Positions 583 to 32,054 of a stretch of DNA of 64,000 bases are shown in pieces. The number at the start of each line of letters is the position of its first letter. Positions within the stretch are counted from its first letter, which is position 1. Location of the stretch: contig CALVHX010000001.1 of the NCBI GenBank assembly GCA_944329195.1, positions 3,562 through 67,561 on the forward strand, given 5' to 3'. The notes below the pieces were generated by a model. That model was not told the origin of the DNA. It saw only the letters and a program-made list of their open reading frames with translations, and searched no databases. This DNA comes from an uncultured Bacilli bacterium. Its GTDB lineage: Bacteria > Bacillota_I > Bacilli_A > RF39 > UBA660. A program made the translations under genes and the position numbers.

Positions 583-585
583 TTT

Positions 586-640: not shown

Positions 641-695
641 GTTATTTTCAAAATTTAATAAAAGTGATATAATTAACTAGGAAATGAGGAATAAT

Positions 696-3832: not shown

Positions 3833-3991
3833 AATTCTAAAAGTGGTTATCTTTTATTCTTTTTTATCAACTTTTTTGTAATTTAAAGGTGTAAATATTT
3901 TATATCTAATTTTATTTGTAAAACTTATGTAAAAATATTTAATTTAGTTTTTTTTTTTGATAGAATAATAGTTAGGAAGTTTGGTGGTAGC

Positions 3992-8614: not shown

Positions 8615-8628
8615 AATATTTCCCAGAT

Positions 8629-8644
8629 TATTTCCCGGGAAATA
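8629..8644. promoter_or_regulatory. NBS-like palindrome TATTTCCCGGGAAATA (copy 1), preceded by a direct half-site TATTTCCC at 8617-8624; 15 bp after the polC stop
   Basis: Exact 16-mer. CCCGGG is otherwise absent from this AT-rich window. Confidence 0.6.
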
Positions 8645-8723
8645 TTTTATTTAAATTAATTTATATTTATTTATGGAACAGTATACATATATTTAATTTA
8701 TCATAAATTAAGAAGGATAAAAT

Positions 8724-8739
8724 TATTTCCCGGGAAATA
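8724..8739. promoter_or_regulatory. NBS-like palindrome (copy 2), within the perfect 22-bp palindrome AATTATTTCCCGGGAAATAATT plus T5; about 100 bp upstream of polA
   Basis: Exact 16-mer TATTTCCCGGGAAATA. Confidence 0.6.
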
Positions 8740-8836
8740 ATTTTTATGATAAATAAAAAATAATTACGTGGTAAGATATGATAAATTGCTTTATTTTAAA
8801 TTTTTTGGTAAAATTGTCATAGAAAGACTTGGTGAT

Positions 8837-11422
8837 ATGATGAAAAAAATAGTTTTGGTGGATGGTAATAACTTGTTATTTAGAAGTTATTATGCTACAG
8901 CCTATAATGGGAATATTATGAGAAATAGAGAAGGATTTCCTACTAATGGGATATATGGTTTTGTAAATATGATGAACAAAATAATTCATGAAGAAAAACC
9001 AGAATATATAATGGTAGCTTTTGATGTTGGAAAAACTTTTAGGCACGAAAAATATGAGAAATACAAAGATGGCCGCAGGGAAACTCCAGAAGAACTTAAA
9101 ATGCAATTTCCTGTAGTTAAAAAGATTTTAAATGCTATGGGTATCAAACATTTGGAATGTGCTGGTTACGAAGCTGATGATATTATTGGTACTATATCAT
9201 TATGGTGTGAAAATGATCCTAATTATGAGGCGTTGATTGTCAGCAGTGATAAAGATTTACTACAGCTTATTAGTGATGAGACTGTTGTTAAACTTCTAAA
9301 AAGTAAAGATTATATTATGATGGACAAAAAAATGTTTGAAAATACTTATGGTTTCGAACCAATAAAAATGATTGATTTAAAAGCTCTAATGGGTGATTCT
9401 TCAGATAATATTCCGGGTGTTAAAGGAATTGGAGAAAAAGGGGCAATTAAGCTATTAAATGAATATGAATCTTTAGATGATATTTATAAAAATATAGATA
9501 ATATAAAAGGAAGTATAAAAACAAAATTAATTGAAGGTAAAGATGATGCTTACTATAGTAGAGAATTAGTAACTATCTGTAGAGAAGTTCCGTTAGATAT
9601 ATCTTTTGATGAATTGATATACAGAGGTGAAAATTCTGATGAATTAATTGATATTTACAATGACTTGGGATTTTATTCTTTATTAAAAAATATTAATACA
9701 AATAGTGAAATTTTATATAATGATGTCAAAAAAAATGATATTAGAATTGTTACTGATATAAAAGATGTTGTTATTGATGAAGATACATCTATTTACATAG
9801 ATACAACTAGTGGTAATTATCATGATGCTGTAATTAATGGTATTTCACTTTATAACAGCAAGGTTTCTTATTATATTCCTTTTGATATTATAAAAGATAA
9901 TATTAGTGTGCTAAACAGTAGTTATATTAAGTTTACATATGATTTGAAAAAACTAGTTGTTATGTTCAATAAATATAATGTAAATTTTGAAAATATTTAT
10001 TTTGATGCAATGATTAGTGGTTATTTACTTAATTATAACGTAAAAGATGACATTTGCTATTTAGCAAAAGATCTTGATTTTAATATCCCTTTCTATAATA
10101 AAAAGGAGATTTTAGATATTGACGAAATTGCTAGAAGAGATGTTTTAAAAGCCAAGTTTATATATGAAATAAAAAATAAGTTTTATGAAGAAATGATAAA
10201 AGAAGAATCTATCGACTTATTTGAAAAAATAGAAATGCCTTTAGCTAGAGTTCTTGCTAAAATGGAAATAGAAGGTATTTTAGTTAATAGAGCCGTATTA
10301 GAAGATATGGGAAAAGAAATTAAAAATAAACTTCAAATTATTACACGTGATATTTATAATTATGCGGGTATTGAATTTAATATTAATTCTCCGAGACAAC
10401 TGGGTGAAGTTCTATTTGATAAATTGAAACTTCCGTTTGCTAAAAAAAACAAAATAGGATATGTTACAGATATTGATATACTAAAGAAATTAGCTAATTA
10501 TCCGATCGTGAGCAAAATTTTAGAATATAGAAGTCTATCAAAACTTTATTCTACCTATATAGAAGGAATTATAAACTGTATTAGAGAAGATGGTAAAATT
10601 CATACTATTTTTACACAGACACTTACTAGGACGGGTAGGTTGTCTTCAATTGAACCTAATTTACAAAATATTCCTATGAAAAGTGAATATGGTAGATTAA
10701 TTAGAAAAGCTTTCATACCAGAAGAAGATTCTGTCATTATGTCTTCTGACTATTCGCAAATAGAACTTAGAGTCTTTGCCCATTTATCGGGAGTTAAAGA
10801 TTTAATTGACGCTTTTAATAAAAATGATGATATTCATATGAGAACCGCTATGGACATATTTGGTGTGATTGAAGAAGACGTCACAAAGAATATGAGAAGA
10901 CAGGCTAAAGCAGTTAATTTTGGGATTCTTTACGGTATCAGTAGCTTTGGTTTATCGGAAGATCTTGGAATTTCTGTTAAAGAGGCAAAAGATTTTATTG
11001 ATAAATATTTTGAAACATATCCCGGCGTAAGAGATTATATGGATAAAGAAATAAAAGATGCTACTAAAAATGGTTTTGTTAAAACAATTATGAATAGAAA
11101 AAGAATTATTGAAGAACTTAAAAATTCTAATCGCAATATTAGAAGTATGGGGGAAAGGATGGCTCTTAATACTCCTATTCAAGGATCGGCTGCAGATATA
11201 TTAAAAAAAGCGATGGTAGAAATTGATGAGGAATTTAAAAAGCAATCTATCAAAAGTAAAATGTTACTTCAAGTTCATGATGAACTTATATTTAATGTAT
11301 ATAATGACGAAATTGATAAAGTTAAGGATATTGTGTATGATATTATGACTAATACCTATAAACTTTTAGTACCTCTTGATGTTGATATTGAAATGGGAAA
11401 TAGTTGGTATGAGGCTAAATAG
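8837..11422 (+). CDS. polA: DNA polymerase I
   Basis: 5'-3' exonuclease N-terminus (MMKKIVLVDGNNLLFRSYYA), 3'-5' exonuclease-like middle domain, polymerase motifs RRQAKAVNFGILYG and LQVHDELIF. The ORF is open from GTG 8768, but ATG 8837 follows a GGTGA RBS. Confidence 0.85.
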   Translation: MMKKIVLVDGNNLLFRSYYATAYNGNIMRNREGFPTNGIYGFVNMMNKIIHEEKPEYIMVAFDVGKTFRHEKYEKYKDGRRETPEELKMQFPVVKKILNAMGIKHLECAGYEADDIIGTISLWCENDPNYEALIVSSDKDLLQLISDETVVKLLKSKDYIMMDKKMFENTYGFEPIKMIDLKALMGDSSDNIPGVKGIGEKGAIKLLNEYESLDDIYKNIDNIKGSIKTKLIEGKDDAYYSRELVTICREVPLDISFDELIYRGENSDELIDIYNDLGFYSLLKNINTNSEILYNDVKKNDIRIVTDIKDVVIDEDTSIYIDTTSGNYHDAVINGISLYNSKVSYYIPFDIIKDNISVLNSSYIKFTYDLKKLVVMFNKYNVNFENIYFDAMISGYLLNYNVKDDICYLAKDLDFNIPFYNKKEILDIDEIARRDVLKAKFIYEIKNKFYEEMIKEESIDLFEKIEMPLARVLAKMEIEGILVNRAVLEDMGKEIKNKLQIITRDIYNYAGIEFNINSPRQLGEVLFDKLKLPFAKKNKIGYVTDIDILKKLANYPIVSKILEYRSLSKLYSTYIEGIINCIREDGKIHTIFTQTLTRTGRLSSIEPNLQNIPMKSEYGRLIRKAFIPEEDSVIMSSDYSQIELRVFAHLSGVKDLIDAFNKNDDIHMRTAMDIFGVIEEDVTKNMRRQAKAVNFGILYGISSFGLSEDLGISVKEAKDFIDKYFETYPGVRDYMDKEIKDATKNGFVKTIMNRKRIIEELKNSNRNIRSMGERMALNTPIQGSAADILKKAMVEIDEEFKKQSIKSKMLLQVHDELIFNVYNDEIDKVKDIVYDIMTNTYKLLVPLDVDIEMGNSWYEAK

Positions 11423-11429
11423 CAAAAAT

Positions 11430-11445
11430 TATTTCCCGGGAAATA
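11430..11445. promoter_or_regulatory. NBS-like palindrome (copy 3) with an adjacent duplicated right half-site GGGAAATA at 11450-11457; between polA and mutM
   Basis: Exact 16-mer, 8 bp after the polA stop and 38 bp before the mutM start. Confidence 0.6.
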
Positions 11446-11482
11446 ATTTGGGAAATAATTAATTAGAAGGAAGTGGATAATT

Positions 11483-12304
11483 ATGCCAGAACTACCTGAA
11501 GTAGAAACAGTAAAAGAAGCTTTGAAAGCTAAATTAATAAATAAAAAAATTATTGGAATAAATATTTTATACGATAATATTATTGCTTATCCATCAAAAG
11601 AAAAATTTATTTATGAAATTCAAAATCAAACTATCAATGATATGAAAAGAAGAGGAAAATTTTTGATTTTTGACTTAGATGATTATTATTTATTATCCCA
11701 TCTTAGAATGGAAGGTAAATATTTCTTTAAAAATAATAATCAGAGTATTGAAAAACATGAACATATTATTTTTAAATTAAATGATAACGAGGAATTAAGG
11801 TACATGGATACAAGAAAATTTGGAAAAATGTACCTTATCGAAAAAAATAACATTGATAATATTGGTCCGCTTAAAAGTTTAGGTCTTGAACCTTGGGATG
11901 ATAAATTAACTAGCAAATATCTTTTAGACAAATACAAAAGTAAAGGCATTCCTGTAAAGACAGCATTATTAGAACAAGATATTATTGCCGGTATTGGGAA
12001 TATATATGCAGATGAAATTTTATTTTTAAGTAAAATTAATCCTTTGAAAAAATGTAATTTAATTACTGAAAAAGAAACTAAAAATATTATAAAATATACG
12101 AGAGAAGTACTAGAAAACGCCATAACAAAGGGAGGAACTACTATTAGAAGCTATAGCTCTGTAGATGGAGTACATGGTCTTTTTCAACAGGAACTGTTAG
12201 TTCATGGAAAAGATAAAGAGAAGTGTCCTTATTGCTCTTCACAAATAAATAAGATTAAAGTTGGGGGAAGAGGTACTTACTATTGTCCACTTTGTCAAAA
12301 ATAA
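11483..12304 (+). CDS. mutM: formamidopyrimidine-DNA glycosylase (Fpg/MutM)
   Basis: N-terminal MPELPEVETV (catalytic Pro2/Glu3) and C-terminal zinc finger CPYC...CPLCQ. Confidence 0.85.
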   Translation: MPELPEVETVKEALKAKLINKKIIGINILYDNIIAYPSKEKFIYEIQNQTINDMKRRGKFLIFDLDDYYLLSHLRMEGKYFFKNNNQSIEKHEHIIFKLNDNEELRYMDTRKFGKMYLIEKNNIDNIGPLKSLGLEPWDDKLTSKYLLDKYKSKGIPVKTALLEQDIIAGIGNIYADEILFLSKINPLKKCNLITEKETKNIIKYTREVLENAITKGGTTIRSYSSVDGVHGLFQQELLVHGKDKEKCPYCSSQINKIKVGGRGTYYCPLCQK

Positions 12305-12332
12305 TCATTTACAATAAATTTACATAACTTTT

Positions 12333-12365
12333 GTAACCTATTTGGTTACATTTTTCTTTTTTTGT
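12333..12365 (+). terminator. rho-independent terminator after mutM
   Basis: TGTAACC-tattt-GGTTACA hairpin followed by TTTTTCTTTTTTT. Confidence 0.55.
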
Positions 12366-12408
12366 TGACTTTAATAATATTGTGTGATAGGTTAAATTTG
12401 GTGATATA

Positions 12409-12819
12409 ATGAATGATGAATGCTTTAGAAAATCTCTCATCGAAATTACTGATAAAAATTTATTAAATAACTTTGTCAATGAAATTTTTGGTTATGATTT
12501 AAAAAATGATCAATACGTTTATATTCAATATAAGATTGTTCATGAAAACATTGTAATTAATATATATGATAATAGTTATAATAATAGATTTAAAGCTTTT
12601 ATTTTTACAACTAATAGTAATTTAGAAAGCAATGGAGATATTAAATATATTAATATTAATCATTGCTATAATTCTTATAAAAATAATGTAATTGATAGTA
12701 AATTGGACTTAATTGGTTCATTACTTATTTCAAAAAGTAATGATGAAAAAAAAGAGATTATTTCTAAGCTATTCGATAATGATATAAAAAATATTTTATT
12801 TAAATACTTTATTACTTAA
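12409..12819 (+). CDS. hypothetical protein (136 aa, Asn/Ile-rich, no recognisable domain)
   Basis: ORF only. Convergent with tmcAL and very AT-rich. Confidence 0.3.
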   Translation: MNDECFRKSLIEITDKNLLNNFVNEIFGYDLKNDQYVYIQYKIVHENIVINIYDNSYNNRFKAFIFTTNSNLESNGDIKYININHCYNSYKNNVIDSKLDLIGSLLISKSNDEKKEIISKLFDNDIKNILFKYFIT

Positions 12820-13959
12820 TTATTTATACCTTGTTATTATTGGTCTTTTTTCATATTCTCTTTTTATTAAATTAGAGTCTGTTTCTAAGGAATATATTTT
12901 TGTTGCTACAAGTTCTATATCTAGTATTTTAGATATATTTTTTTTATAACTTGTTATTATAGGGATAGTTATTTGTTTCTTTATTTTATTTAAATATTCT
13001 TGTCCTTTTTTGGAAAAGCCTAAGATCCGAAGATAATCTATATCTAACTGCCTAACTGACTCTTTAGTAAGACCAATGAGAATATGCAGAAGCATACGAG
13101 AAATTTTATTATAAGTATATCTTTTTGTCTTTACTTTCATTATTAAATCAGTGTAATTTTCTGCAAATTCTATATTTTTCAAAATTCGATTTTCTATTCC
13201 TTCGTCTACTGTCTGATATTTTCTAATCATCTTGTCTTCTAGTAATATTTTATATTTTAAATAAGGAAAATAATTATTCATTGCTACTTTATATAGGTAT
13301 TTTTCGGAATATGGTATTAGTTTGTCTATTTTTTTTCCATTTAAAAATCTTTTTCTAATAGCTGTAGCAGAGGCTATATTACCTTTAATTTTTGTACTAT
13401 GATAATTATTTGTTCTTGGAATATTTTTTATTTCTATTTTTTTATTTGAAAGCATTATTTGTTTTATGTAAGATAATGCTAAAAGATCATTTGGACTATC
13501 TATCCTTACTCCTATTAGATCTTCAATTGCTTTATTAGCCGCTGTTGGATAACTTATTCCTTTATTTAAATATTCTTTAAGTCTTTTATCATACTCTTTA
13601 TTATTTAACTGAAAAGTGGCAGCTTGTTTTATTTTTTCTATTGAAAGCGATTCTGTGCCGAATACTAATGTATCTATCTTTAGTTTTTCTAATATTGATA
13701 TTGCTCCTTTTGCAAATACATCAGATGATTGTACTGCATAGACAAAAGGGAGCTCTAAAACAATATCGATTCCGTTATCTAAAGCAATTTTTGTTTTATC
13801 CCACTTATTAAGAACTGAAATTTCCCCACGCTGTGTAAAAGAAGTTGCTAAAACTGCTATTATTATACTATCTTGATATATTTTTTTTATTTCGTTTATT
13901 TGATATAAATGTCCATTATGAAAAGGGTTATATTCCGCTACTAAACCTATTATGCGCAT
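12820..13959 (-). CDS. tmcAL: tRNA(Met) cytidine acetate ligase TmcAL (YlbM/UPF0348 nucleotidyltransferase)
   Basis: MRIIGLVAEYNPFHNGH (HxGH nucleotidyltransferase motif) and the YlbM-like body. GGTGA RBS before ATG 13959; the ORF extends to 14004. Confidence 0.65.
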   Translation of the reverse strand: MRIIGLVAEYNPFHNGHLYQINEIKKIYQDSIIIAVLATSFTQRGEISVLNKWDKTKIALDNGIDIVLELPFVYAVQSSDVFAKGAISILEKLKIDTLVFGTESLSIEKIKQAATFQLNNKEYDKRLKEYLNKGISYPTAANKAIEDLIGVRIDSPNDLLALSYIKQIMLSNKKIEIKNIPRTNNYHSTKIKGNIASATAIRKRFLNGKKIDKLIPYSEKYLYKVAMNNYFPYLKYKILLEDKMIRKYQTVDEGIENRILKNIEFAENYTDLIMKVKTKRYTYNKISRMLLHILIGLTKESVRQLDIDYLRILGFSKKGQEYLNKIKKQITIPIITSYKKNISKILDIELVATKIYSLETDSNLIKREYEKRPIITRYK

Positions 13960-14078
13960 ATTTATCACCAAATATATAATATCATAGTTGGCTTGATAAT
14001 GCAAAATTAATATTGCAGTTAAGCTGTTTCATATGATATAATATGCATATATTATTTGAAGTGAGGAAGTTATAAGTT

Positions 14079-15596
14079 ATGTTTAATTTTTTAAATATAT
14101 TTGAAGAAATTATTATTGATGTTGGAAAAGCATATCCTGATTGGAAAAATGTCTATAATATTATAGGTAATGTTATTACTATGATGCTTGCATACAAAAC
14201 TATTTATTGGATTATTGGCGTTTTTTTTACAAGAAAATTTAAACCTGCTAAAAATAAGCATACGTATGCTATTGTTATTCCAGCAAGAAATGAAAAAAAT
14301 GTTATTGGTAATCTTCTTGATAGCATTAAAAAACAGGACTATCCTAAAGAGTTACTTACTGTTTTTGTCATAGCGGATAACTGTACTGACAATACGGCAG
14401 AAATTGCTAGAAGTCATGGAGCTATTTGCTACGAAAGATTTGATGATGAACATAAGACTAAAGGGTTTGCTCTTCAATATTTATTTGAAAAGATCGAAGA
14501 AGATTATGGATGTATGTCATTTGAAGGGTACTTTGTATTTGATGCTGATAACTTATTAAAAAGTGATTATATTTCTCGAATGAATGATGCCTTCGATGCT
14601 GGTGAAAAAATAATTACTTCGTATAGAAATACTAAAAACTTTGATGAAAATTGGATTGCATCCACTTATGCTCTACATTGGATTAGATCTATTAGAAGTA
14701 ATCATAGAGCAAGATCAGTACTTAGACTTGCCACTAATATACAGGGAACTGGTTTTTTATTTACAAATGAAATTGTAAAAAATGGATGGAAATATACTTC
14801 GTTAACTGAAGATAGAGCCTTAACTGCGGACGCCGTGGCGCAAGGTTACAAGATTTCTTATCAGGATGCTGCTGAATTTTATGATGAACAGCCAACTAAT
14901 TTAAAAGTTGCTCTAAGACAACGTACTAGATGGTCAAAAGGTCATTTGATGGCTTTTGTCGAAACTGGTCCTTATTTATTATTAAATATATTCACTGGTA
15001 AATTATTTTTGAAAACTAGATGGAAAGAAAAAGAAGAAAAAAAACAAAAAAAGAGTTTTAAGGATATCGTACTTGCTATTATTGAATCTATAAGACACCG
15101 CTTTGCTTCTTTTGATACACTATTACAACTTACTCCTTTCTCGGTATTTAATTTGGCTAGATGGTTTATTGTGTGCGTTGTAATGTATGGTTGTTTTTGT
15201 TATAGTAATGGTATTGATAGTAGTAATTTGTTTGGTGGGGGAACTTATTTGGCAAAACTACTTAGAAGTTTATTTGAAATAAAAATATCTACTGTTCCCG
15301 GTATTAATGCTCTTTTTGTCGGTATGCTTGTATCTATATGGCTTAGAATTTTTTATAGAATTGGTATGTATATTCAAAATATGTGGATGGCTATATATTT
15401 ATTTATTATAGAAAGAAAAAGAATTAAAAAGATTCCTTTAAGAAAAAAAATTTTATATACTTTGACATGGCCGACATTTGATATTATTGGTAGATATACT
15501 ACATACGCGGCACTATTTATGAAGGTTACTTGGAAACCGATTCCTCACGATAGTAAAGTTACAATTGATGATATTAGCAAAGAAAAAAGTGAATAA
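14079..15596 (+). CDS. processive family-2 glycosyltransferase, membrane-bound (QxxRW motif)
   Basis: IVIPARNE, D-x-D FDADN and QRTRWSKGH motifs as in cellulose synthase/IcaA/NodC-type GT2. C-terminal transmembrane segments. Confidence 0.65.
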   Translation: MFNFLNIFEEIIIDVGKAYPDWKNVYNIIGNVITMMLAYKTIYWIIGVFFTRKFKPAKNKHTYAIVIPARNEKNVIGNLLDSIKKQDYPKELLTVFVIADNCTDNTAEIARSHGAICYERFDDEHKTKGFALQYLFEKIEEDYGCMSFEGYFVFDADNLLKSDYISRMNDAFDAGEKIITSYRNTKNFDENWIASTYALHWIRSIRSNHRARSVLRLATNIQGTGFLFTNEIVKNGWKYTSLTEDRALTADAVAQGYKISYQDAAEFYDEQPTNLKVALRQRTRWSKGHLMAFVETGPYLLLNIFTGKLFLKTRWKEKEEKKQKKSFKDIVLAIIESIRHRFASFDTLLQLTPFSVFNLARWFIVCVVMYGCFCYSNGIDSSNLFGGGTYLAKLLRSLFEIKISTVPGINALFVGMLVSIWLRIFYRIGMYIQNMWMAIYLFIIERKRIKKIPLRKKILYTLTWPTFDIIGRYTTYAALFMKVTWKPIPHDSKVTIDDISKEKSE

Positions 15597-15609
15597 AGTT
15601 ATTCGCTTT

Positions 15610-17565
15610 TTATATACTCTTATCATCTTTATTTTTTATTGTTTTAAAATAATTGTACTTCAGTGTTAAATCGTTTTTTCTTATAAGATAATTTATATAA
15701 TAATTTTTATCTTCGAGATTTATTTGATTAATATTTTTATTATTTGTAACTATTCCTCCATCGACATAAACATTTCCGTCATACCAAGAGTAATCACTAA
15801 AGAAGACAATACCTTGATAATTGTTATTTAGGGCATCAGCACCAATATAGTAATTCGGATGATATTCATTACCAAACAAATTTAATAATGTTGGTAAAAT
15901 ATTTAATTGTGATGTTACTTCTTTTACTGTTTTTTTATCAATATTGTTTTTCCATATGAAGAAAGGAGTTTTGTTTATTAAATTATTATTTGTCTCTTTA
16001 TATTTTTCTAAAATTGTTTGATCAGATAAAGTATACAAATAATGATCGGTAAACACCGCTATTACAGTGTTATCAAGAATACCTTCTTCTTCTAATTTTT
16101 TCAATAGTAATTCAATCATGTAGTCTGTTTCTTTAGCTTGTCTTCTAGCACAATCTTCTTCTGTCATAATAGGAAGTATAGTGTCTTCTGGTAACTCTTC
16201 AAGATTGTTTTCTTTTTTTATATCTTCTTCAACTAATATTTTACATACTCCTCTTTCAGTAGTAAACGGCATGTGAGCAGAATAAGTTATAATATAATTG
16301 ACAAATTTTTCTTCACTGAACATTTTTTCAGAAAATTCTTCATTAAGTATTAGTTCTCGGTCTAACGTATAACTTTCATCTGTATACGTTTCTAGATCTT
16401 GCAGTCCATAGTAATTGTCATATCCCCAATTTTTGTAGTTTGTTCCGCGCGAATAGTACTCACTAGTATTCATATGAAAAGCATTAACTGTATATCCTTC
16501 TTTTTTAAAAAGATGGGCCAAAGAATATGTAAATTCATTCTTGTTAAAAGAATATGCATTTTGTGTGTACGATAATGGTGTTATGAATCCTGTATTAACT
16601 GCAAATTCAGAATTAAATGTTGAACCGCCTCCATTATAATATGAATAATGATTGGAAAAATTAATAGAATTGTTCATCATGTTATACAGCGTTGGGGTAT
16701 CTTCTTCCGTTATAAGCCAATTATCTATTCCTTCTAACTGGATTATTATTAAATTATTATCTTTAAACATACCTGTATATTTATTTGAATAGTTTTCTTC
16801 TGTACTACTATATACTTCTTCTAAAAAAGTTAATTCTTCTTCGTTAACTGTTTTCTTTGACTTGATAAAAGTAATATAAAAATTTCTTACTGTATACTCA
16901 TATAGACCACTTATTCGCATACTTTTATTATTATCATTAAAATTTATATATATATTACGTGGATTTCTCCATGTGCTCCACGTTAATTCTGAATCCGGGC
17001 TTCCTAATAAAAATGGTATTATAAAATGAGCTATAAGAAATATAAAAAATACTCTTATTATATTTTTTAAATTAGTTTTCTTTCTTTTCGGAAAATATTT
17101 AATTCCTACTATAAAGGACATTATTATTATTAGTGAAGAAATATAAACCCATATATTACAATTTACAATGGCGTCAAATATATATTCTGAACCTTCACTT
17201 GTCATTAAAAGCAAGCTAAAATCAAAAAATGAATCAGTCATAGAATAATATATATTGTTTGTTAAAAAGAAAAGAAAGAAAAGAAAAAAGAAGAATATAT
17301 AGTAAATTTTTCCCTTTTTTTTCTCTGTAAATAAACATATTCCTAATATTAAAAAAACCCATACTAGAGTAAATAAATTAGGTACTAAACTTAATATGTG
17401 GAAAAAGTTTATTTTACTTCCTATTATCCTAGTAATAATATCCATTAATATAAATGGCAGTGCTACTAATAATATATAATAATATTTACCTAACAATTTT
17501 TTAATTGTGGAAATTATTTTCATATTTTTTACTTTTTTTACTACTTTTTTCAAGACAATCACCAT
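15610..17565 (-). CDS. ltaS: LtaS-family lipoteichoic acid synthase / sulfatase-domain membrane protein
   Basis: Five N-terminal TM helices, then an extracellular sulfatase domain (LEGIDNWLI, YNGGGSTFNSEFAVNTG). Confidence 0.7.
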   Translation of the reverse strand: MVIVLKKVVKKVKNMKIISTIKKLLGKYYYILLVALPFILMDIITRIIGSKINFFHILSLVPNLFTLVWVFLILGICLFTEKKKGKIYYIFFFFLFFLFFLTNNIYYSMTDSFFDFSLLLMTSEGSEYIFDAIVNCNIWVYISSLIIIMSFIVGIKYFPKRKKTNLKNIIRVFFIFLIAHFIIPFLLGSPDSELTWSTWRNPRNIYINFNDNNKSMRISGLYEYTVRNFYITFIKSKKTVNEEELTFLEEVYSSTEENYSNKYTGMFKDNNLIIIQLEGIDNWLITEEDTPTLYNMMNNSINFSNHYSYYNGGGSTFNSEFAVNTGFITPLSYTQNAYSFNKNEFTYSLAHLFKKEGYTVNAFHMNTSEYYSRGTNYKNWGYDNYYGLQDLETYTDESYTLDRELILNEEFSEKMFSEEKFVNYIITYSAHMPFTTERGVCKILVEEDIKKENNLEELPEDTILPIMTEEDCARRQAKETDYMIELLLKKLEEEGILDNTVIAVFTDHYLYTLSDQTILEKYKETNNNLINKTPFFIWKNNIDKKTVKEVTSQLNILPTLLNLFGNEYHPNYYIGADALNNNYQGIVFFSDYSWYDGNVYVDGGIVTNNKNINQINLEDKNYYINYLIRKNDLTLKYNYFKTIKNKDDKSI

Positions 17566-17755
17566 CTCCTCTTGATTATACTATATATTTATTTTTTTGT
17601 AAATAGACATATTTGATTGTGTAAACATGTGTTTTTAAAGGATAAAATAGATATCTTTTGTTTTGAATAAGCTTTGAGTAAAAGAAATATAAAAATTATT
17701 TATTTTTTACTAATTTTCTGATATAATTTATTTAGAATAGAAGGAAGGGGTATTT

Positions 17756-19516
17756 ATGTTTAAAGAAATACTTGCCATAACTAAAAATTATGCTATTGTT
17801 AAAATTGATGGTGTCGTCAGTGATGACTTACTTAATTTAAATGTTATTTTTGAAGAAACAAACAAAAAAATATTGGGGGAAATTGAAGAAATAATTAATA
17901 ACGAAGCTAAAATTAATTTTTTGGGAGAATTTCAAGGTAATAGATTTTATGATGGAATCATACGAAAACCTAGTGTATCCTCTTCTATTAGGATAATCAA
18001 TGCTGACGAATTAAAAGAACTTACTGGTAACAATGATCCTTATAGTATGATGCTTGGGCTTTCTCCTCTATATAATAATTCTCCAATAAAAATAAACATC
18101 GATGATATGTGGAGTAATCATAGTGCAATTTTTGGTAACACTGGGTCTGGTAAGACTTATGGTGTTGCTAGACTTGTACAAAATTTATTTACAATGTCTA
18201 ATTACATTCCTTTTAATAGCATAATCTTTATATTTAATAATACAGATGAATATGATAATGCTTTTAATTCTATTAGTAATTATAATTTAAATTTTAATTA
18301 TAAGTTATTTACTACTGATACTGAAAGTAGTAATAATTTACTTAAACTTCCTTTGTGGCTTCTATCTGTTGATGATTATGCTAATATTTTAGATGTTAGC
18401 GAGTATTCTCAAATTATGATTATTGAAAAAATGCTTGTCTATGTTTCTCTCTTTGCAAAGAACGATGAAGAAAGTAATAAATATAAAAATCATTTAATTG
18501 CTAAGGCAATTGTTTCTGTTTTGTATTCTAATCAAGTTTCTGCTAGGATAAGAGATCAAATTTTTTCTATTTTAACTGATTGTTATACGAAGGAATTAAA
18601 TTTAGATGTTGAAGTACCCGGTGTTGGGTATACAAGATCATTTAGAAAGTGTTTTGATATTGATAGCAAAGGTGAATTTGTCGAAAGGATTCTCATTACG
18701 GAATATATTAATAAATTTATTGACAATACTATCGAGTGGAAAGAAGAGTATACCCCTACTTATTTTACGATAGATGATTTAGAGATTGCACTTAATTTTA
18801 CGCTAATCTCTGAAGGTCTATTACTAAATGAAAAGTCATATAGTGAGGCTACTGCTTTAAAAGTTAAACTTCATACTATTGCTAATAGTTCGATGAGAAA
18901 ATTTTTTGAGGTTGAAAATTTTATTTCAATAAATGATTTTATATCAAGTTTAATTCTAATTGGCAATAATAAAAGGGCACAAATTATAAATTTTGTTCTT
19001 GAAAGTATTGATGATAGATTTGCTAAAAATTTAGTGAAGGTATATTCTAGGTTATTATTTAATTTTTTAAAAACTTTACCTACGAGAGGTAGTATGCCTA
19101 TTCACATTATGCTTGAAGAGGCACACAGATATGTACAAAAAGATAACGATATTAATATTCTAGGATATAATATTTTTGAAAGAATAGCTAAAGAGGGAAG
19201 AAAATTTGGTGTGGTTTTAGATTTAATTACTCAAAGACCAACCGAACTTTCTGAAACTGTTATATCACAATGTAGTAACTTTTTAATTTTTAAAATTAAC
19301 CATCCTAGTGATCTGGAGTATATTGAAAAAATGGTTCCTAACATTAGCAGTGATGTTATAGAAAAACAAAAGTCCCTACAATCTGGTACTTGTGTTGCTT
19401 TTGGTAGAATGATGAAAATACCAATGATTGTAAAAATGGAAATACCTAATCCTCCTCCACAAAGTTCTAATGCTAAAGTATTTGATAAGTGGATGATACA
19501 GTGGAAAAATAACTAA
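17756..19516 (+). CDS. HerA-like (DUF87/COG0433) FtsK-HerA superfamily ATPase, stand-alone
   Basis: N-terminal HAS-barrel-like region, Walker A GNTGSGKTY, Walker B IMLEEAHRY, and the ITQRPTEL sensor motif typical of HerA/VirB4/FtsK. Confidence 0.65.
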   Translation: MFKEILAITKNYAIVKIDGVVSDDLLNLNVIFEETNKKILGEIEEIINNEAKINFLGEFQGNRFYDGIIRKPSVSSSIRIINADELKELTGNNDPYSMMLGLSPLYNNSPIKINIDDMWSNHSAIFGNTGSGKTYGVARLVQNLFTMSNYIPFNSIIFIFNNTDEYDNAFNSISNYNLNFNYKLFTTDTESSNNLLKLPLWLLSVDDYANILDVSEYSQIMIIEKMLVYVSLFAKNDEESNKYKNHLIAKAIVSVLYSNQVSARIRDQIFSILTDCYTKELNLDVEVPGVGYTRSFRKCFDIDSKGEFVERILITEYINKFIDNTIEWKEEYTPTYFTIDDLEIALNFTLISEGLLLNEKSYSEATALKVKLHTIANSSMRKFFEVENFISINDFISSLILIGNNKRAQIINFVLESIDDRFAKNLVKVYSRLLFNFLKTLPTRGSMPIHIMLEEAHRYVQKDNDINILGYNIFERIAKEGRKFGVVLDLITQRPTELSETVISQCSNFLIFKINHPSDLEYIEKMVPNISSDVIEKQKSLQSGTCVAFGRMMKIPMIVKMEIPNPPPQSSNAKVFDKWMIQWKNN

Positions 19517-19552
19517 AGGAAAGGCTTATAAATAAAGTCTTGCCTTTTTTTT

Positions 19553-19669
19553 CGACAATATCAACAGGTCTGTTGAAAAAAATATAAACACTTGTTATTT
19601 AAAGTTATCAACATCATTGTTGATAACTTTAATATTTCCTTTAATTATATATGCTTATGTTGTTGATAA
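19553..19669. promoter_or_regulatory. oriC left DnaA-box cluster (TTATCAACA / ATATCAACA variants, including an inverted pair at 19605-19627) plus the dnaA promoter
   Basis: ATATCAACA at 19556-19564, TTATCAACA at 19605-19613, TGTTGATAA at 19619-19627, TGTTGATAA at 19661-19669. The TTGATT...TATAAT promoter follows. Confidence 0.7.
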
Positions 19670-19777
19670 ATTGTTTATATGTTGTTATTTTAATTGTTAT
19701 TAAAAAAATGACTAGACAAAATTGATTTTTGCGTTATAATAAATTTAAGTGAACTTTAAGACAAGGAGGTTTAGGTA

Positions 19778-22385: not shown

Positions 22386-22549
22386 AAATTTAATTTATTA
22401 TTTTGTTTTTAACTATTAGCAATTTTTCTTGTTAATAGTTTTTATTTTTTTATATTTTTTTATATATTCGACAAAAAGAGACTTTTTTCGACATTTTTTT
22501 GTGTTTTAATATTTTCTACATATTTTTATATGTGGAAAGGGGGATTTTT

Positions 22550-23005
22550 ATGGATAATTACATTATTAATGAAAATACTTTATGTTTTACTCAAGATATT
22601 GATAATACTGATGAAATTCTTGTGATAGAGAAGAAAAGAAAATTTAATATTAAAATGAAATGTCTTAAGTTTATCAACAAAAGCTGTTGTTGTTATGGTC
22701 ACTCGTATAATGTACAAAGACAAATTATTATTGATAATTTTAATTTTTATATTAAAACTCCTATAGTTGTATCTGAGTATAACATGTTTATTTTCTTTCC
22801 TACATCTTCTCCAAGTTCAAATGAATGTATTTGGATTTCTTATAATAATGTTGATAGGTATGTTAAGGAAGATAATTATACTAAAATTTATTTTAAGGGT
22901 GGAAAGATTTTAAATATTAGTGCTAAATATACTACGATTGATAGTCAAATAACAAAATGTATTAAGATAGAACGTTATTTAAATAATTTAAAGGTAAAAA
23001 GGTAG
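22550..23005 (+). CDS. comK: ComK-family competence transcription factor-like protein
   Basis: MFIFFPTSSPSSNECIWISYNNV aligns with B. subtilis ComK IFLFPTLSSTRPQCGWISHVHV, with similar overall length and upstream cysteines. RBS GGAAAGGGGGA before ATG 22550. Confidence 0.55.
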   Translation: MDNYIINENTLCFTQDIDNTDEILVIEKKRKFNIKMKCLKFINKSCCCYGHSYNVQRQIIIDNFNFYIKTPIVVSEYNMFIFFPTSSPSSNECIWISYNNVDRYVKEDNYTKIYFKGGKILNISAKYTTIDSQITKCIKIERYLNNLKVKR

Positions 23006-23116
23006 ATTTTCTATCATTTTATCTTTTTTTTGTGGTTATTTTATGATATAATTATATATGTATAGGGGTACATAAAATTGAAAAAGGTGGATTTATGAGT
23101 CAAAAAATAGTTTTAA

Positions 23117-24208
23117 ATGAAAATTAAAAATATTAGATTAAAAAATTATCGTAATTATGATAATTTAAATATTTCTTTTTGCGATAATTTAAATATTATA
23201 ATTGGAGATAATGCTCAAGGTAAGACTAATCTTCTGGAAGCAATTTATGTACTTGCTGTTACTAAATCTTTTTTATCGATTAACGACCACAATTTAATAA
23301 AATTTGGTAATAAATGTTCTTTTATTGAAGGATTAATCGAAAAGAAAAATTCAACTCTAGATTTGGAAATATTACTCAATGATAATGGAAAATTTGTTAA
23401 AATTAACCATAAAGAAATTAAAAAATTAAGTGAGTATATTTCGAAGATGAACGTTATTATTTTTAGTGCTGATTCTATTAGAATGCTTAAAGAAAGTCCC
23501 TCTACTAGGAGAAAATATTTTAATATTCAAATAAGTCAGATAAATAAAAGATACTTAAAAATGTTAACGGATTATAATATTATTTTAAGGCAGAGAAATG
23601 AATTCTTAAAAATTATTGATATGAATAAAAAAACTGATACTGACTATTTAGAAATAATTAATGACAAATATGTTGATTTATCGCTTAAAATATATAATTT
23701 TAGAGATGAATATGTTAAAAATATTAATAGTTATTTAGGAAATATGTTTTTTTCTATTACTGGTTTTGATGGACTTAAATTAAAGTATATTTCTAATATT
23801 GATAATAGTAGAGATAATTTATTAGAGAAGTTAAATAAAAATATAAATAAAGAAATTCAGTATAAAATGACTTTAATTGGTCCTAATAGAGATGATTTTT
23901 GTTTTTATTTGAATGATAAAAATTTATCTCTATATGGTTCTCAGGGTCAGATGAGAAGTGCGATAATTGCTCTTAAAATGTCTGAAGTATTCTTATTTAC
24001 TGATAAAGTTGGGGATAGTCCAATACTTCTATTAGATGATATGTTTAGTGAATTAGATATTAATAAAAGAAATAATATACTTGCTAATTTAACTCATGAT
24101 GTACAAACTATAATAACAACTACTGATATAGATAATATTAATGAGAATATTAGAAAAAAAGCAAATGTTTATGAAATAAAAGATGGAAAATTATTTCCCG
24201 GGAAATAA
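23117..24208 (+). CDS. recF: DNA replication and repair protein RecF
   Basis: Walker A GDNAQGKTNLLEA, SMC-like signature and LLLDDMFSELD Walker B. The last codons and stop (KLFPGK*) are supplied by NBS palindrome copy 4. Confidence 0.85.
   Translation: MKIKNIRLKNYRNYDNLNISFCDNLNIIIGDNAQGKTNLLEAIYVLAVTKSFLSINDHNLIKFGNKCSFIEGLIEKKNSTLDLEILLNDNGKFVKINHKEIKKLSEYISKMNVIIFSADSIRMLKESPSTRRKYFNIQISQINKRYLKMLTDYNIILRQRNEFLKIIDMNKKTDTDYLEIINDKYVDLSLKIYNFRDEYVKNINSYLGNMFFSITGFDGLKLKYISNIDNSRDNLLEKLNKNINKEIQYKMTLIGPNRDDFCFYLNDKNLSLYGSQGQMRSAIIALKMSEVFLFTDKVGDSPILLLDDMFSELDINKRNNILANLTHDVQTIITTTDIDNINENIRKKANVYEIKDGKLFPGK
24192..24207. promoter_or_regulatory. NBS-like palindrome (copy 4), overlapping the recF stop codon; 26 bp upstream of gyrB
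   Basis: Exact TATTTCCCGGGAAATA within AATTATTTCCCGGGAAATAATT. Confidence 0.6.
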
Positions 24209-24232
24209 TTTTGAACAGGAAGGGTGATTTAA

Positions 24233-26149: not shown

Positions 26150-26162
26150 GAGGTTTTAAGGT

Positions 26163-28694: not shown

Positions 28695-28753
28695 TAAAAT
28701 TACTTTCTTTTTTTAATATTGCAAAGTGTATATAATTTTTAAATGTGCAAAAT

Positions 28754-28769
28754 TATTTCCCGGGAAATA
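28754..28769. promoter_or_regulatory. NBS-like palindrome (copy 5), 60 bp after the gyrA stop
   Basis: Exact 16-mer within AATTATTTCCCGGGAAATAATT. Confidence 0.6.
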
Positions 28770-28836
28770 ATTAGTAAACAAATGTTCGCTATTGCTAAAA
28801 TTCTTGAAATATATGTTAAAACATGTTATTATACTG

Positions 28837-28919
28837 TTGATACAACATTAATTAGTGGAACCAAGTCAGGATCGGAAGATAGCAGCTTTAACACTTTATT
28901 AATGTGTGTATCTTTTTTT
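28837..28919 (+). ncRNA. ffs: signal recognition particle RNA (small 4.5S/scr type)
   Basis: AAGUCAGGAUCGGAAGAUAGCAGC matches the SRP domain IV consensus AGGUCAGGUCCGGAAGGAAGCAGC. The 5' and 3' arms are complementary (GATACAACATTAATTAGTG / CACTTTATTAATGTGTGTATC). Promoter TTGAAA(28804)-17-TATTAT(28827), T7 run at the 3' end. Confidence 0.6.
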
Positions 28920-28965
28920 AATATTTTAAAAAATAGATTGTTGATAGATTAAATTAATATTTTTA

Positions 28966-28981
28966 TGTTTCACGTGGAACA
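28966..28981. promoter_or_regulatory. parS-like site 1 (TGTTTCACGTGGAACA)
   Basis: One mismatch from the ParB/Spo0J consensus. Confidence 0.65.
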
Positions 28982-29075
28982 TAAAAATATATAGTGTTGT
29001 GGGAATTAATTTTAATTATAAAATTTAAAATTTGAAACAAATTATTTTATTAATATTTAAATAGATAACGTCTAA

Positions 29076-29091
29076 TGTTCCACGTGAAACA
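29076..29091. promoter_or_regulatory. parS-like site 2 (TGTTCCACGTGAAACA)
   Basis: Identical to the B. subtilis parS consensus. Confidence 0.7.
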
Positions 29092-29188
29092 TGTCTTTTA
29101 AAATTAAAATTGGGTGATTATAAAAATATAATCAGTTTAGAAAAAGTAGTTTAAAAATAGATTTTATTATTTGCGTATAATCAATTCA

Positions 29189-29204
29189 TGTTTCACGTGG
29201 AACA
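29189..29204. promoter_or_regulatory. parS-like site 3 (TGTTTCACGTGGAACA), start of duplicated unit 1
   Basis: Followed by the DnaA-box-like TTATCAACA at 29208-29216. Confidence 0.65.
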
Positions 29205-29389
29205 TATTATTTATCAACAGTTTAACATATCTTTTAATGGAAAGTGTTTTAAAAAAATATCAAGATAAAAGTATATCAAAATTTTAATTTATTTTTTTCT
29301 TAATGTATAACTTTAAATTTTTAAATAGTTTATGTTATTTAACTTGAAATTTATAATAAATAAGATTTATTTAAATTTAGATAAATACA

Positions 29390-29405
29390 TGTTCCACGTG
29401 GAACA
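29390..29405. promoter_or_regulatory. parS-like site 4 (TGTTCCACGTGGAACA), centre of the perfect 22-bp palindrome ACATGTTCCACGTGGAACATGT
   Basis: Perfect palindrome, two symmetric changes from the consensus. Confidence 0.65.
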
Positions 29406-29482
29406 TGTATTTATAACTATTGTATTAAAAAAATACTTAATATGTGTATGTTTGAATATTTACTTATAATTAATTAGTTTAA

Positions 29483-29498
29483 TGTTTCACGTGGAACA
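29483..29498. promoter_or_regulatory. parS-like site 5 (duplicate of site 3)
   Basis: Start of tandem unit 2. Confidence 0.65.
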
Positions 29499-29683
29499 TA
29501 TTATTTATCAACAGTTTAACATATCTTTTAATGGAAAGTGTTTTAAAAAAATATCAAGATAAAAGCATATTAAAATTTTAATTTATTTTATTCTTAATGT
29601 ATAAGTTTAAATTTTTAAATAGTTTATATTATTTAACTTGAAATTTATAATAAATAAGATTTATTTAAATTCAGATAAATACA

Positions 29684-29699
29684 TGTTCCACGTGGAACA
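29684..29699. promoter_or_regulatory. parS-like site 6 (duplicate of site 4)
   Basis: Within tandem unit 2. Confidence 0.65.
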
Positions 29700-29772
29700 T
29701 GTATTTTTAACTGTATTAAAAAGAATTTAATATGTGTATGTTTGAATATTTACTTATAATTAATTAGTTTAA

Positions 29773-29788
29773 TGTTTCACGTGAAACA
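29773..29788. promoter_or_regulatory. parS site 7 (TGTTTCACGTGAAACA, exact consensus)
   Basis: Exact 16-bp palindrome. Confidence 0.7.
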
Positions 29789-29875
29789 TTAATAATATTA
29801 ACAGTAATCAGTCATTTATTGATATATTAGTATAATTATATTGTTGTAAATAGGTATTTTATATGGTAATATGTT

Positions 29876-29891
29876 TATGTTTCACGTGAAA
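29876..29891. promoter_or_regulatory. parS site 8 (exact consensus), immediately upstream of and overlapping the tadA 5' region and RBS
   Basis: Exact 16-bp palindrome ending 4 nt before the GGAG RBS of tadA. Confidence 0.7.
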
Positions 29892-29909
29892 CATGGAGTT
29901 TGTGATAAT

Positions 29910-30338
29910 ATGATTGATAATGATAGAATGTTGATGGCATTAGAACAAGCAAAAAAAGCATATGAATTGGATGAAATACCTGTTGGTTGTGTTATTTTTA
30001 GAAAAAATGAGTTGGTGAGTTGTGGATTTAATAGAAAAGAGAGCAAATGTAATTCTGTTATGCATGCTGAAATGATTGCTATTAACGCTGCTTGTGAAAA
30101 GCTTGGACGTTGGAGGCTTGACGACTGTTGTTTATATGTGACTTTAAAACCTTGTATGATGTGTATGGGTGCTATAATTGAAAGTAGAATTAAAAAAGTG
30201 TATTATGGAACTGAAAATAATGTCGAACAAATGTACGATATAAGTAAAATTTCAAAGTTTGTTAATCTTTATAATCTTGAAAATAACGATTGTTCTAAAA
30301 TATTGTCAGATTTTTTTAAAAACAAAAGAAAAAAGTGA
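29910..30338 (+). CDS. tadA: tRNA-specific adenosine deaminase TadA
   Basis: CDA zinc motifs HAEMIAI and PCMMCMGAI. The ORF is open from ATG 29871, which lies inside parS site 8, but GGAG precedes ATG 29910. Confidence 0.8.
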   Translation: MIDNDRMLMALEQAKKAYELDEIPVGCVIFRKNELVSCGFNRKESKCNSVMHAEMIAINAACEKLGRWRLDDCCLYVTLKPCMMCMGAIIESRIKKVYYGTENNVEQMYDISKISKFVNLYNLENNDCSKILSDFFKNKRKK

Positions 30339-30383
30339 AATTTTCACTTGTTTTTGTGCTATAATATTGTCGATAGGAGGCAT

Positions 30384-32054
30384 ATGGTGAGTTATTTAGC
30401 TTTGTATAGAAAATATAGGCCGAATAATTTTGATGATGTAAGTGGTCAAGAAAAAGTAGTAGCTGTTATTAAAAATGCGATTGTTAATAATAAAGTTTCT
30501 CATGCATATTTATTTAGTGGACCTAGGGGAACTGGTAAGACTACTATTGCTAAAATATTGGCTCGACTTGTTAATTGTGAAAATTTATCTTCAGATGGCA
30601 AACCTTGTGGAAAATGTTATAGTTGTGTTAATTATTTTAATAGTAACGATATTGTTGAAATTGATGCAGCTTCTAATAATGGTGTTGATGAAATTAGAGA
30701 ACTTAGGGATAAGATTAATTTAGTGCCAAGTAATTCTAAATATAAGGTATACATAATTGATGAGGTACACATGCTTACAACGCAAGCTTTTAATGCTTTG
30801 TTAAAAACTTTAGAAGAACCTCCATCTCACATTATATTTATTTTAGCTACTACTGATCCGCAAAAGGTTCCTTTGACTATATCTTCTAGATGTCAAAAAT
30901 TTCAGTTTTCTAAATTGGATGTTACGAAGATTGTTGAGAGATTAGAACAAATTGTCAATTCTGAAAATATTGATATTGAAAATGACGCACTGTTCGAAAT
31001 TGCAAGACTAGCGGAAGGTGGCATGCGAGATGCTATCAATATATTAGACCAGCTAGTTGCTTATAAAAACGATAAAATTACCTTGGAAGATGTTTATTTA
31101 GTTAATGGCTCGATTTCATATGATGATGTTTTAAAGTTGATGAATGCTATTAGATTAAATGATAAAATTGAAATAATTAAATTTATTGATTTTTTTGATA
31201 ATAGTGGTAAAGAGGTCAATAAATTTGTTCAAGAATTAATTGTTTTTTTAAAAGATGTTATTTTGTATAAAAATACTGGCATTTTGACTGGTATTGAAGT
31301 TAAAAATAGTTGTGTTAAATCCGTTGCTGATCTATATGATGATATTATTTTATATAATTTTATAGAAGATTTGAATGAGACTAGCAATAGAATAAAATTT
31401 TCTTCTCATTCTTCGATAATTTTTATGACAGCAGTTCTAAAATTTTCAAATAATTATTTTTGTGAGGGTACTGAAAATATTTCCCGGGAAATAATTAAAA
31501 AGAGTTTTGATAATAAAAAAGAGCAAAATAAAAAAGAACAACTAAAAGAAAATATTTCCCGGGAAATAATTAAGGCCAATGAAGCTTCTTCTATGTCCGA
31601 CAAAGAAATAAAAGTAAGAATAAATAATTCGCTTGCCTTAGCTTCTAAATCTTTTTTGCAAGAATTAAAGAGTAATTGGAATAGAATAGATGATTATATT
31701 TATGATGATAGTTTTTCTGTGGTGAGTGGTCTGCTTAAGGATTCTGTGCCTGTTGTTGGATCTTCTACTAATTTAATTATTGTCAATAGGCTTGATTCTG
31801 TTGTTAATAGAATTAATGAAAATATATTGTTGATAGAAAAGTTGTTGAAAAAAATATTTAATTATAATATGCAAGTTGTTGCCATTGATGAGGATACTTG
31901 GTGTGAGGAAAAAAATAAATATATTATTAATTTAAAAAAGGGAATTAAGTATGAAATTATTGATTCTAAAGAAAAAAATACCGAGAGAAAGGTAAAAAAT
32001 TCTGTTGATGAACTTATTGGTTTGATTGGTGAAAGTGTTATTGAGTATAAATAA
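30384..32054 (+). CDS. dnaX: DNA polymerase III subunit gamma/tau
   Basis: RYRPNNFDDVSGQ, GPRGTGKTT, zinc module CGKCYSC, DEVHML. Carries two in-frame NBS palindromes that encode ENISREIIK twice. ATG 30384 follows an AGGAGG RBS. Confidence 0.85.
   Translation: MVSYLALYRKYRPNNFDDVSGQEKVVAVIKNAIVNNKVSHAYLFSGPRGTGKTTIAKILARLVNCENLSSDGKPCGKCYSCVNYFNSNDIVEIDAASNNGVDEIRELRDKINLVPSNSKYKVYIIDEVHMLTTQAFNALLKTLEEPPSHIIFILATTDPQKVPLTISSRCQKFQFSKLDVTKIVERLEQIVNSENIDIENDALFEIARLAEGGMRDAINILDQLVAYKNDKITLEDVYLVNGSISYDDVLKLMNAIRLNDKIEIIKFIDFFDNSGKEVNKFVQELIVFLKDVILYKNTGILTGIEVKNSCVKSVADLYDDIILYNFIEDLNETSNRIKFSSHSSIIFMTAVLKFSNNYFCEGTENISREIIKKSFDNKKEQNKKEQLKENISREIIKANEASSMSDKEIKVRINNSLALASKSFLQELKSNWNRIDDYIYDDSFSVVSGLLKDSVPVVGSSTNLIIVNRLDSVVNRINENILLIEKLLKKIFNYNMQVVAIDEDTWCEEKNKYIINLKKGIKYEIIDSKEKNTERKVKNSVDELIGLIGESVIEYK
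31478..31493. promoter_or_regulatory. NBS-like palindrome (copy 6) inside the dnaX coding sequence, in frame
   Basis: Exact 16-mer, part of the 26-bp direct repeat GAAAATATTTCCCGGGAAATAATTAA. Confidence 0.6.
31553..31568. promoter_or_regulatory. NBS-like palindrome (copy 7) inside the dnaX coding sequence, in frame, 75 bp after copy 6
   Basis: Exact 16-mer. Second copy of the 26-bp direct repeat. Confidence 0.6.

Follow-up and report, generated by a model that had tools for sequence, protein, structure and literature searches.

Noc-binding sites gathered beside parS around dnaA in an uncultured Bacilli bacterium, and Noc-type proteins without a membrane helix in its relatives

Introduction

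In Noc, the textbook example, a duplicate of ParB has acquired a different DNA specificity, an anchor in the membrane and a new function. Here we analyse the Noc-binding sites (NBS) of a 64-kb stretch of DNA from an uncultured Bacilli bacterium (GenBank assembly GCA_944329195.1, contig CALVHX010000001.1, positions 3,562 to 67,561), referred to as the window in the following. Seven perfect copies of the site lie around dnaA in this window, together with an array of parS, the site of canonical ParB.

The chromosome of Bacillus subtilis carries about 70 NBS, which are distributed along most of its length (PMC4331003). The first ten residues of classical Noc form an amphipathic helix that is needed for membrane binding and division occlusion. 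Without these residues the protein is inactive in nucleoid occlusion, and the helix is present in all homologues examined by Adams et al. (PMC4331003, PMC8429893). At the four specificity positions ParB shows RTAG and Noc QKKR, whereby Q173 reads the A at position 1 and R201 the C at position 6 of the site and one Lys at either 179 or 184 is sufficient (PMC7383237).

The locus described here has the same 16-bp site as the Noc-NBS system of B. subtilis and Staphylococcus aureus. Unlike there, the sites of the lineage are confined to the dnaA-gyrA-dnaX region and occur in tandem arrays alternating with parS. With ParB-parS they share the location near dnaA, a palindromic 16-mer, multiple copies including intragenic ones, a centromere-like layout and presumably the function as a clamp-loading site that depends on cytidine triphosphate (CTP). 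In contrast to ParB-parS, two specificity positions per half-site are different and the protein on the NBS side has no N-terminal ParA-interaction motif. With a probability of roughly 0.7 we read the seven 16-mers as loading sites for a Noc-type ParB clamp, which is predicted from sequence comparison to form a second complex in the dnaA region. A literature search, which was not exhaustive, returned no prior description of origin-clustered NBS, of alternating NBS/parS arrays or of a Noc without the helix.

Results and discussion

Seven perfect NBS in the window

The 16-mer TATTTCCCGGGAAATA is present in seven perfect copies starting at 8629, 8724, 11430, 24192, 28754, 31478 and 31553, and no further copy with up to 3 mismatches is found in the 64 kb. 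All seven occurrences of CCCGGG in the window are located within these copies. The expected count is 0.47 for the 16-mer or CCCGGG, the G+C content being 22-34% across the window, and seven copies were reached in none of 100 dinucleotide-preserving shuffles. An earlier inspection of the letters without database searches (the sequence-only reading) had counted the same seven sites and is confirmed in this respect. The region from 31.6 to 64 kb and the 10 kb past the right end of the window are free of NBS. The palindrome is longer than 16 bp, with a consensus of AAAW-16mer-WTTT and, in most copies, AAAAT-16mer-ATTT. Beyond ~24 bp the flanks of the seven copies are unrelated to each other; the conserved length of the repeated motif amounts to 16-24 bp, not 6 bp.

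All seven copies agree with the NBS palindrome ATTTCCCGGGAAAT in its 16-bp form. The 22-bp duplex of the Noc-DNA co-crystal, GGATATTTCCCGGGAAATATCC, holds the 16-mer of the window exactly (PMC7383237), and therefore its assignment to the NBS consensus, made before from the letters alone, is correct. The parS sequence TGTTTCACGTGAAACA is not matched by these copies, as both specificity positions differ in each half-site. Sites of the parS class are found separately. The array that the sequence-only reading had named is real and comprises eight sites with 0-2 mismatches (28966..29893) in the 1.2-kb spacer between gyrA and tadA, the last of them just within the tadA open reading frame (ORF). Both site classes of the ParB family are hence present around dnaA, as had been claimed.

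Copy 1 (8629..8644) is located 15 bp past the polC stop (8614) and copy 2 (8724..8739), a full 26-bp palindrome AAAATTATTTCCCGGGAAATAATTTT, 29 bp 5' of the polA ORF (8768); both are kept in the conspecific contigs L133 and L134. Copy 3 (11430..11445), kept in L134, lies between the polA stop (11422) and the mutM start (11483). Copy 4 (24192..24207) overlaps the stop codon of recF and is kept in six conspecific contigs. An NBS at the recF/gyrB junction is moreover found in L062, the closest other species found among the matches listed (DnaA 89% identical). Copy 5 (28754..28769) follows the gyrA stop by 60 bp and precedes the first parS of the array by 212 bp. Copies 6 (31478..31493) and 7 (31553..31568) are both within dnaX, 75 bp apart, and are read in the same frame as E-N-I-S-R-E-I-I-K. 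These gene positions are those given before, except that the distance from copy 4 to the gyrB ATG is 25 nt instead of 26. Six conspecific contigs cover four of the copies, with identical positions in 6/6. The source organism is a gut bacterium of low GC content. The RecF protein of the window is found unchanged on many metagenomic contigs, including a 1.68-Mb contig and the metagenome-assembled genome (MAG) GCA_947853795.1.

Isolated half-sites flank copies 1, 3 and 4 at 8617, 11395, 11450 and 24357, all within 165 bp of a full site. The one next to copy 1 (8617-8624) reads TATTTCCC, and those at 11395 and 11450, on either side of copy 3, read GGGAAATA. Altogether the window holds 6 extra half-sites compared to ~2 expected by a rough estimate.

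The palindrome as a structural element

The copies had further been proposed to double as bidirectional terminators, which is not borne out. A terminator pattern scan flags 0/7 copies, and the hairpins predicted for the palindrome by itself (-3.6 to -7.4 kcal/mol) do not exceed those of shuffled sequences in stability. Stronger hairpins (-11 to -13.5 kcal/mol) are predicted at copies 1 and 3 only, because half-sites adjoin these two; copy 1 and its half-site can pair to a hairpin of -11.3 kcal/mol. With no flags in the scan, weak hairpins, two copies inside dnaX and one between recF and gyrB, a general role as intrinsic terminator was rejected.

More broadly, the motif might be a structural or selfish palindrome, i.e. 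an intrinsic terminator, an element similar to repetitive extragenic palindromes (REP) or miniature inverted-repeat transposable elements (MITE), or a CCCGGG related to restriction-modification. Five copies are intergenic, a T-rich stretch follows copy 1, and CCCGGG is the SmaI/XmaI site, all of which would fit. However, besides the outcome of scan and folding, two copies are part of an ORF and one separates the co-transcribed recF and gyrB, conservation spans 16-24 bp and ends in unrelated flanks, and the sites occupy orthologous positions in different species, within a single region. We consider this explanation very improbable.

Distribution of NBS in other genomes

The 16-mer was scanned for in 185,579 species-representative genomes, and at least 120 stretches matched. 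Roughly half of those listed are higher-GC Firmicutes with single copies, among them Planococcus, Listeria, Lentibacillus, Marinococcus and several Clostridia, plus scattered unrelated phyla. At least 52 are low-GC (≤33%) MAG contigs labelled uncultured Bacilli, Tenericutes, Mycoplasmatota or Clostridium sp. CAG:628. In nearly all low-GC loci among the matches listed every CCCGGG is within the 16-mer, and 52/52 are syntenic with the window block that reaches from upstream of dnaA to metG, which corresponds to ~2% of a 1.5-1.7-Mb genome.

The 95 NBS of these loci are most common in the gyrA-tadA-dnaX spacers (57/95). Twelve are inside dnaX, in 12 different loci, and seven upstream of dnaA. The remaining ones are found in trmN (5), rsmI (3), between rsmI and pth (3), in mfd (2) and at other places of the block (6). 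The statement that all copies sit at replication or repair genes therefore does not extend to the relatives, in which trmN, rsmI, pth, mfd and metG carry or adjoin the motif; there it occurs just as easily in genes of tRNA and rRNA modification. Its link to replication and repair genes arises because such genes are encoded near dnaA.

The same numbers bear on the idea that the sites are operators of a transcription factor governing a replication/repair regulon (polC, polA, mutM, recF-gyrBA, dnaX). The copies of the window are indeed found at boundaries of such genes, one just 5' of polA and one just 5' of gyrB. Two others are deep within dnaX however, relatives have the motif in or beside the five genes named above and in arrays of 6-7 copies within one spacer, and the association follows chromosomal position instead of gene function. 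The lineage moreover has a ParB-family protein whose recognition residues fit the motif (see below). A regulon is an improbable explanation.

As a control, a second, noc-centred set of loci (≥9 kb each, dnaA and dnaN being included in many) was chosen for its noc-like gene, irrespective of the motif. These 726 kb contain 1 perfect NBS and 0 perfect parS. Neither in the matches listed nor in the noc-centred loci are NBS scattered over most of the chromosome with a gap near the terminus only; in the window and its relatives they are clustered close to dnaA/oriC in the manner of parS. Because the sites are confined to the block and the noc-centred control is nearly empty, the motif is not a dispersed repeat. 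Accordingly, genome-wide dispersal and sequence conserved beyond the core palindrome, as in REP or MITE, are both lacking. A uniform spread without a Noc homologue, which had been named as pointing to a generic palindrome, is not what we observe: the sites are non-uniform and Noc homologues are encoded in related species.

Six contigs (L021, L066, L073, L077, L080 and L097) are labelled 'uncultured Muribaculaceae' (Bacteroidota), which is implausible. They have 24-37% GC and show the Firmicute-type order gyrA-tadA-dnaX-recR or dnaA-dnaN-comK-recF, so that an error of binning or labelling is probable. The noc gene itself contains a perfect NBS in two Firmicutes MAGs of higher GC, one a Bacillota and one a Peptococcaceae (L106, position 4130; L065, position 774). 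Likewise, parS is often found inside parB.

Composite NBS/parS arrays and selection at the DNA level

The gyrA-tadA spacer of the window has a single NBS that is followed by the parS array. In many relatives NBS and parS alternate in this spacer. The circular 1.52-Mb genome L026 has 6 NBS and 6 parS in units of ~126 bp, L113 has 7 NBS and 8 parS, and L022, L048, L067, L101, L100, L118 and L011 are similar. In 449 kb of low-GC sequence we count 102 perfect NBS and 67 perfect parS, and hybrid sites mixing the two specificity positions are entirely absent (0 among 169 perfect sites). Of the 76 NBS whose source also has a parS, 39 are at most 60 bp away from one. As parS was not used in selecting the loci, this co-occurrence is a genuine association. 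The start offsets between NBS and the nearest parS cluster at ~23-26, 35-37, 47-48 and 55-59 bp (e.g. in L026, L113, L022, L048 and L067); such steps of ~11 bp could reflect helical phasing. The units of an array are non-independent and hence no claim is drawn from the offsets.

One might suppose a single ParB with dual specificity, the two motifs being variants of one centromere. The interleaving just described agrees with it, and such variants exist in the laboratory (PMC7383237). Those variants however carry mostly Thr or Ser at 201, not the combination Q...R (PMC7383237), the lack of hybrids is contrary to it, and the lineage has two paralogues that contrast in their specificity residues, so that we judge dual specificity to be very improbable, too.

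Selection seemingly acts on the NBS as DNA. Of 102 NBS, 28 are inside ORFs and are read as (N/I)ISREI or, in another frame, as YFPGN(N/I); within dnaX either frame is found, depending on the species. The two dnaX copies of the window use the rare codons TCC and CGG for their shared peptide ENISREIIK. CGG makes up 6/680 Arg codons of the window genes, two of these six being in the dnaX copies, and TCC makes up 30/1207 Ser codons. The use of two reading frames together with rare codons indicates that it is the DNA sequence which is selected for.

A Noc-type protein with two recognition residues kept throughout

In the relatives dnaA is encoded on one strand and rpmH, rnpA, yidC, jag, mnmE, mnmG and rsmG on the opposite one, followed by a gene of the ParB family. 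The order rsmG-noc(-soj-spo0J) known for noc is thus found in these relatives, and one member is named 'nucleoid occlusion protein [Clostridium sp. CAG:628]' at NCBI. Among solved structures the best matches are Noc of Geobacillus (201 bits) and of B. subtilis (185 bits). ParB/Spo0J chains stay behind with ~117-165 bits, using constructs of comparable extent.

We aligned 152 sequences (150 representatives at 50% identity plus references). The ParB boxes GERR and ENxQR are invariant, and the Pfam domains ParB_N and HTH_ParB place the proteins in the ParB family. The specificity residues are Q-K-N-R in 130/152 sequences, with Q173 and R201 invariant and K179 almost invariant; a Lys at only one of the positions 179 and 184 is enough (PMC7383237). 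Gln173 and Arg201 would recognise the A and the C by which NBS differ from parS, with Lys179 as the permissive residue. The combination resembles the PtoN variants (Jalal et al. 2020) in having Q173/R201 and a single permissive Lys on a ParB scaffold, here as Q-K-N-R. Unlike PtoN, which is an engineered Caulobacter ParB, the proteins described here occur naturally, as a widespread clade that has a genomic set of sites to itself. In a neighbour-joining tree they appear as one clade within the Noc branch.

The trio noc-soj-spo0J is present in at least 9 low-GC loci. Its second paralogue is of the true ParB type with R-(T/M)-x-(G/S) at the specificity positions, the N-terminal sequence ALGKGLEELF and a length of ~295-301 aa. 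The Noc-type protein lacks the N-terminal ParA-interaction motif which the true ParB of the lineage has kept. Two paralogues with contrasting recognition residues match the two discrete site classes, which argues against one protein of dual specificity. In the noc-like gene of L132 (10001-11107) a TAG in frame takes the place of a Ser of the relatives; the gene is a pseudogene, or the TAG a sequencing error.

The membrane helix is missing

The proteins of the lineage have 14-21 residues ahead of the PNRFQPR box, compared to 39 in B. subtilis Noc, and the alignment to Noc pairs their residue 4-5 with its residue 26-27. They begin ~22 residues into Noc and therefore are without alpha1, the membrane-targeting sequence, and alpha2. 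In-frame stops are found 0-19 codons 5' of the starts, which themselves are preceded by good ribosome-binding sites; an N-terminal amphipathic helix is thus not encoded. A long, variable linker of low complexity connects the DNA-binding and the C-terminal domain, resulting in a total length of 263-848 aa. Compared to classical Noc, the proteins share Q173, K179, R201, the invariant ParB boxes, a Noc-like C-terminal domain and the gene position after rsmG, often followed by soj-spo0J. They differ from it in the linker and total length (283 aa in classical Noc) and in position 184, which is usually Asn and not Lys.

These features have to be weighed against classical nucleoid occlusion, in which a membrane-binding Noc blocks the Z-ring over the DNA, here with sites unusually dense near the origin. 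It is favoured by the NBS, which does not differ from that of B. subtilis, by an orthologue of the Noc clade at the usual place in rsmG-noc(-soj-spo0J) and by the NCBI name given to one member. It nevertheless requires sites over most of the chromosome (PMC4331003), not in one region, and Noc minus its first 10 residues is inactive (PMC4331003, PMC8429893), whereas the lineage proteins are without alpha1 and alpha2 and have stops just 5' of their starts. The missing helix makes a nucleoid-occlusion signal doubtful, and we regard the classical function as unlikely. Of the earlier proposal of an NBS/Noc system, the site identity and the Noc-clade protein of the lineage hold; nucleoid occlusion is doubtful, for want of the helix and with sites confined to one block.

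A predicted second ParB-type complex

We thus return to the NBS as loading sites of a Noc-type clamp. In such a mechanism NBS would nucleate a Noc-type member of the ParB family, whose proteins are CTP-dependent DNA clamps, and the loaded clamps would presumably spread from there. The candidate is the lineage protein, which keeps the ParB boxes, the Noc recognition helix and the Noc C-terminal domain; a noc of this type is presumed for the window organism. The lineage protein has lost the N-terminal amphipathic membrane helix or never acquired it, and has the long variable linker instead. Among the matches listed, NBS are confined to a few tens of kb around dnaA-gyrA-dnaX, next to the parS of a separate, canonical ParB with its partner Soj, and in many species alternate strictly with these parS. 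Most likely, a second ParB-like nucleoprotein complex would share the origin-region domain with ParB-parS. Its role might lie in organising the origin, in segregation or in the control of initiation rather than in nucleoid occlusion across the chromosome.

Several observations weigh against this reading. No noc or parB is found in the window or its flanks (10 kb at its right end and, up to where the contigs end, 4 kb at its left end) by family scans of essentially all ORFs of at least 90 aa plus tblastn. Two full-length homology searches extended to relatives with HerA 72% identical and gave no match on the 1,675,395-bp contig, and a third search, with a 45-aa N-terminal fragment of L117 as query, returned short fragments only, two of which led to full loci; the window species was reached by none of the three. 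The search for noc and parB suggested by the sequence-only reading hence succeeded for both genes in relatives and not for the copies of the window organism itself. Position 184 of the Noc-type proteins is mostly Asn, otherwise Ser, Thr or Ala, and not Lys. Contact to the membrane or to a partner may be made elsewhere, in the long linker. The term origin-restricted is based on loci among the matches listed plus the noc-centred control. Moreover, the GC skew is positive throughout the window and never changes sign, and the skew-defined origin may be to the left of the window. The skew thus cannot place the origin, and 'dnaA-proximal' is a safer wording than 'origin-proximal'.

Just upstream of dnaA, three DnaA-box variants TTATCAACA are located at 19605..19669. 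DnaA-box matches over the whole window are weakly above chance, and three of them cluster at this place. The trio is likely an oriC element that is bracketed by the NBS cluster.

A further-reaching and rather tentative reading is that a large clade of gut Bacilli has two parallel ParB-type systems on one composite centromere of interleaved NBS and parS, the anchor-less Noc being either a natural intermediate between ParB and Noc or a distinct module for origin organisation or initiation control. If it were an intermediate, the change in DNA specificity would have preceded membrane binding and the spread of sites round the chromosome. The tree carries no support values and so cannot decide between ancestral absence and secondary loss of the helix.

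The lineage, which comprises 150 or more clusters at 50% identity, seems to uncouple the NBS specificity of Noc from its membrane anchor. As a variation on the known Noc-NBS system, the layout of the sites together with the helix-less Noc is of real interest to the ParB/Noc field. It opens to experiment how the same few kb of DNA are shared, or kept insulated, by two related CTP clamps, which function a Noc without membrane binding has and whether origin-restricted NBS are ancestral or derived. Annotations as 'nucleoid occlusion protein' in these genomes may be functionally wrong.

Gene order and further observations

The gene map of the window agrees with the one described before. In order it comprises sufCDSU, polC, polA, mutM, a few envelope genes and a HerA-like ATPase, followed by dnaA, dnaN, comK, recF, gyrB, gyrA, the 1.2-kb spacer, tadA, dnaX, ybaB, recR, holB and ricT and, further downstream, mfd, spoVT, metG and ychF. 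Upstream of dnaA (window 1-19777) the skew is positive and most genes are on the + strand; suf, polC, polA, mutM, envelope genes and herA replace the usual block rpmH-rnpA-yidC-jag-mnmEG-rsmG-noc. The origin region of the window species is rearranged relative to L132, L190 and L215.

The gene of the HerA/DUF87-type ATPase (17756-19516) is directly 5' of dnaA, likewise in L062, L190 and L215. An NBS between herA and dnaA is present in these three and missing from the window.

Within the very dense parS array, two pairs of sites are spaced by 294 bp (29189/29483 and 29390/29684), which suggests an internal duplication. Tandem Repeats Finder did not register the units of the array, as they are too diverged; only the internal duplication of ~294 bp is visible. 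In the 1.68-Mb conspecific contig L004 an extra ORF of 444 aa without Pfam match (15845-17179) is inserted in the parS-containing gyrA-tadA spacer, making it ~1.8 kb longer. Finally, a comK homologue (22499-23005) is located between dnaN and recF, and takes the same place in L030, L038, L043, L062, L077, L093, L105 and L132.

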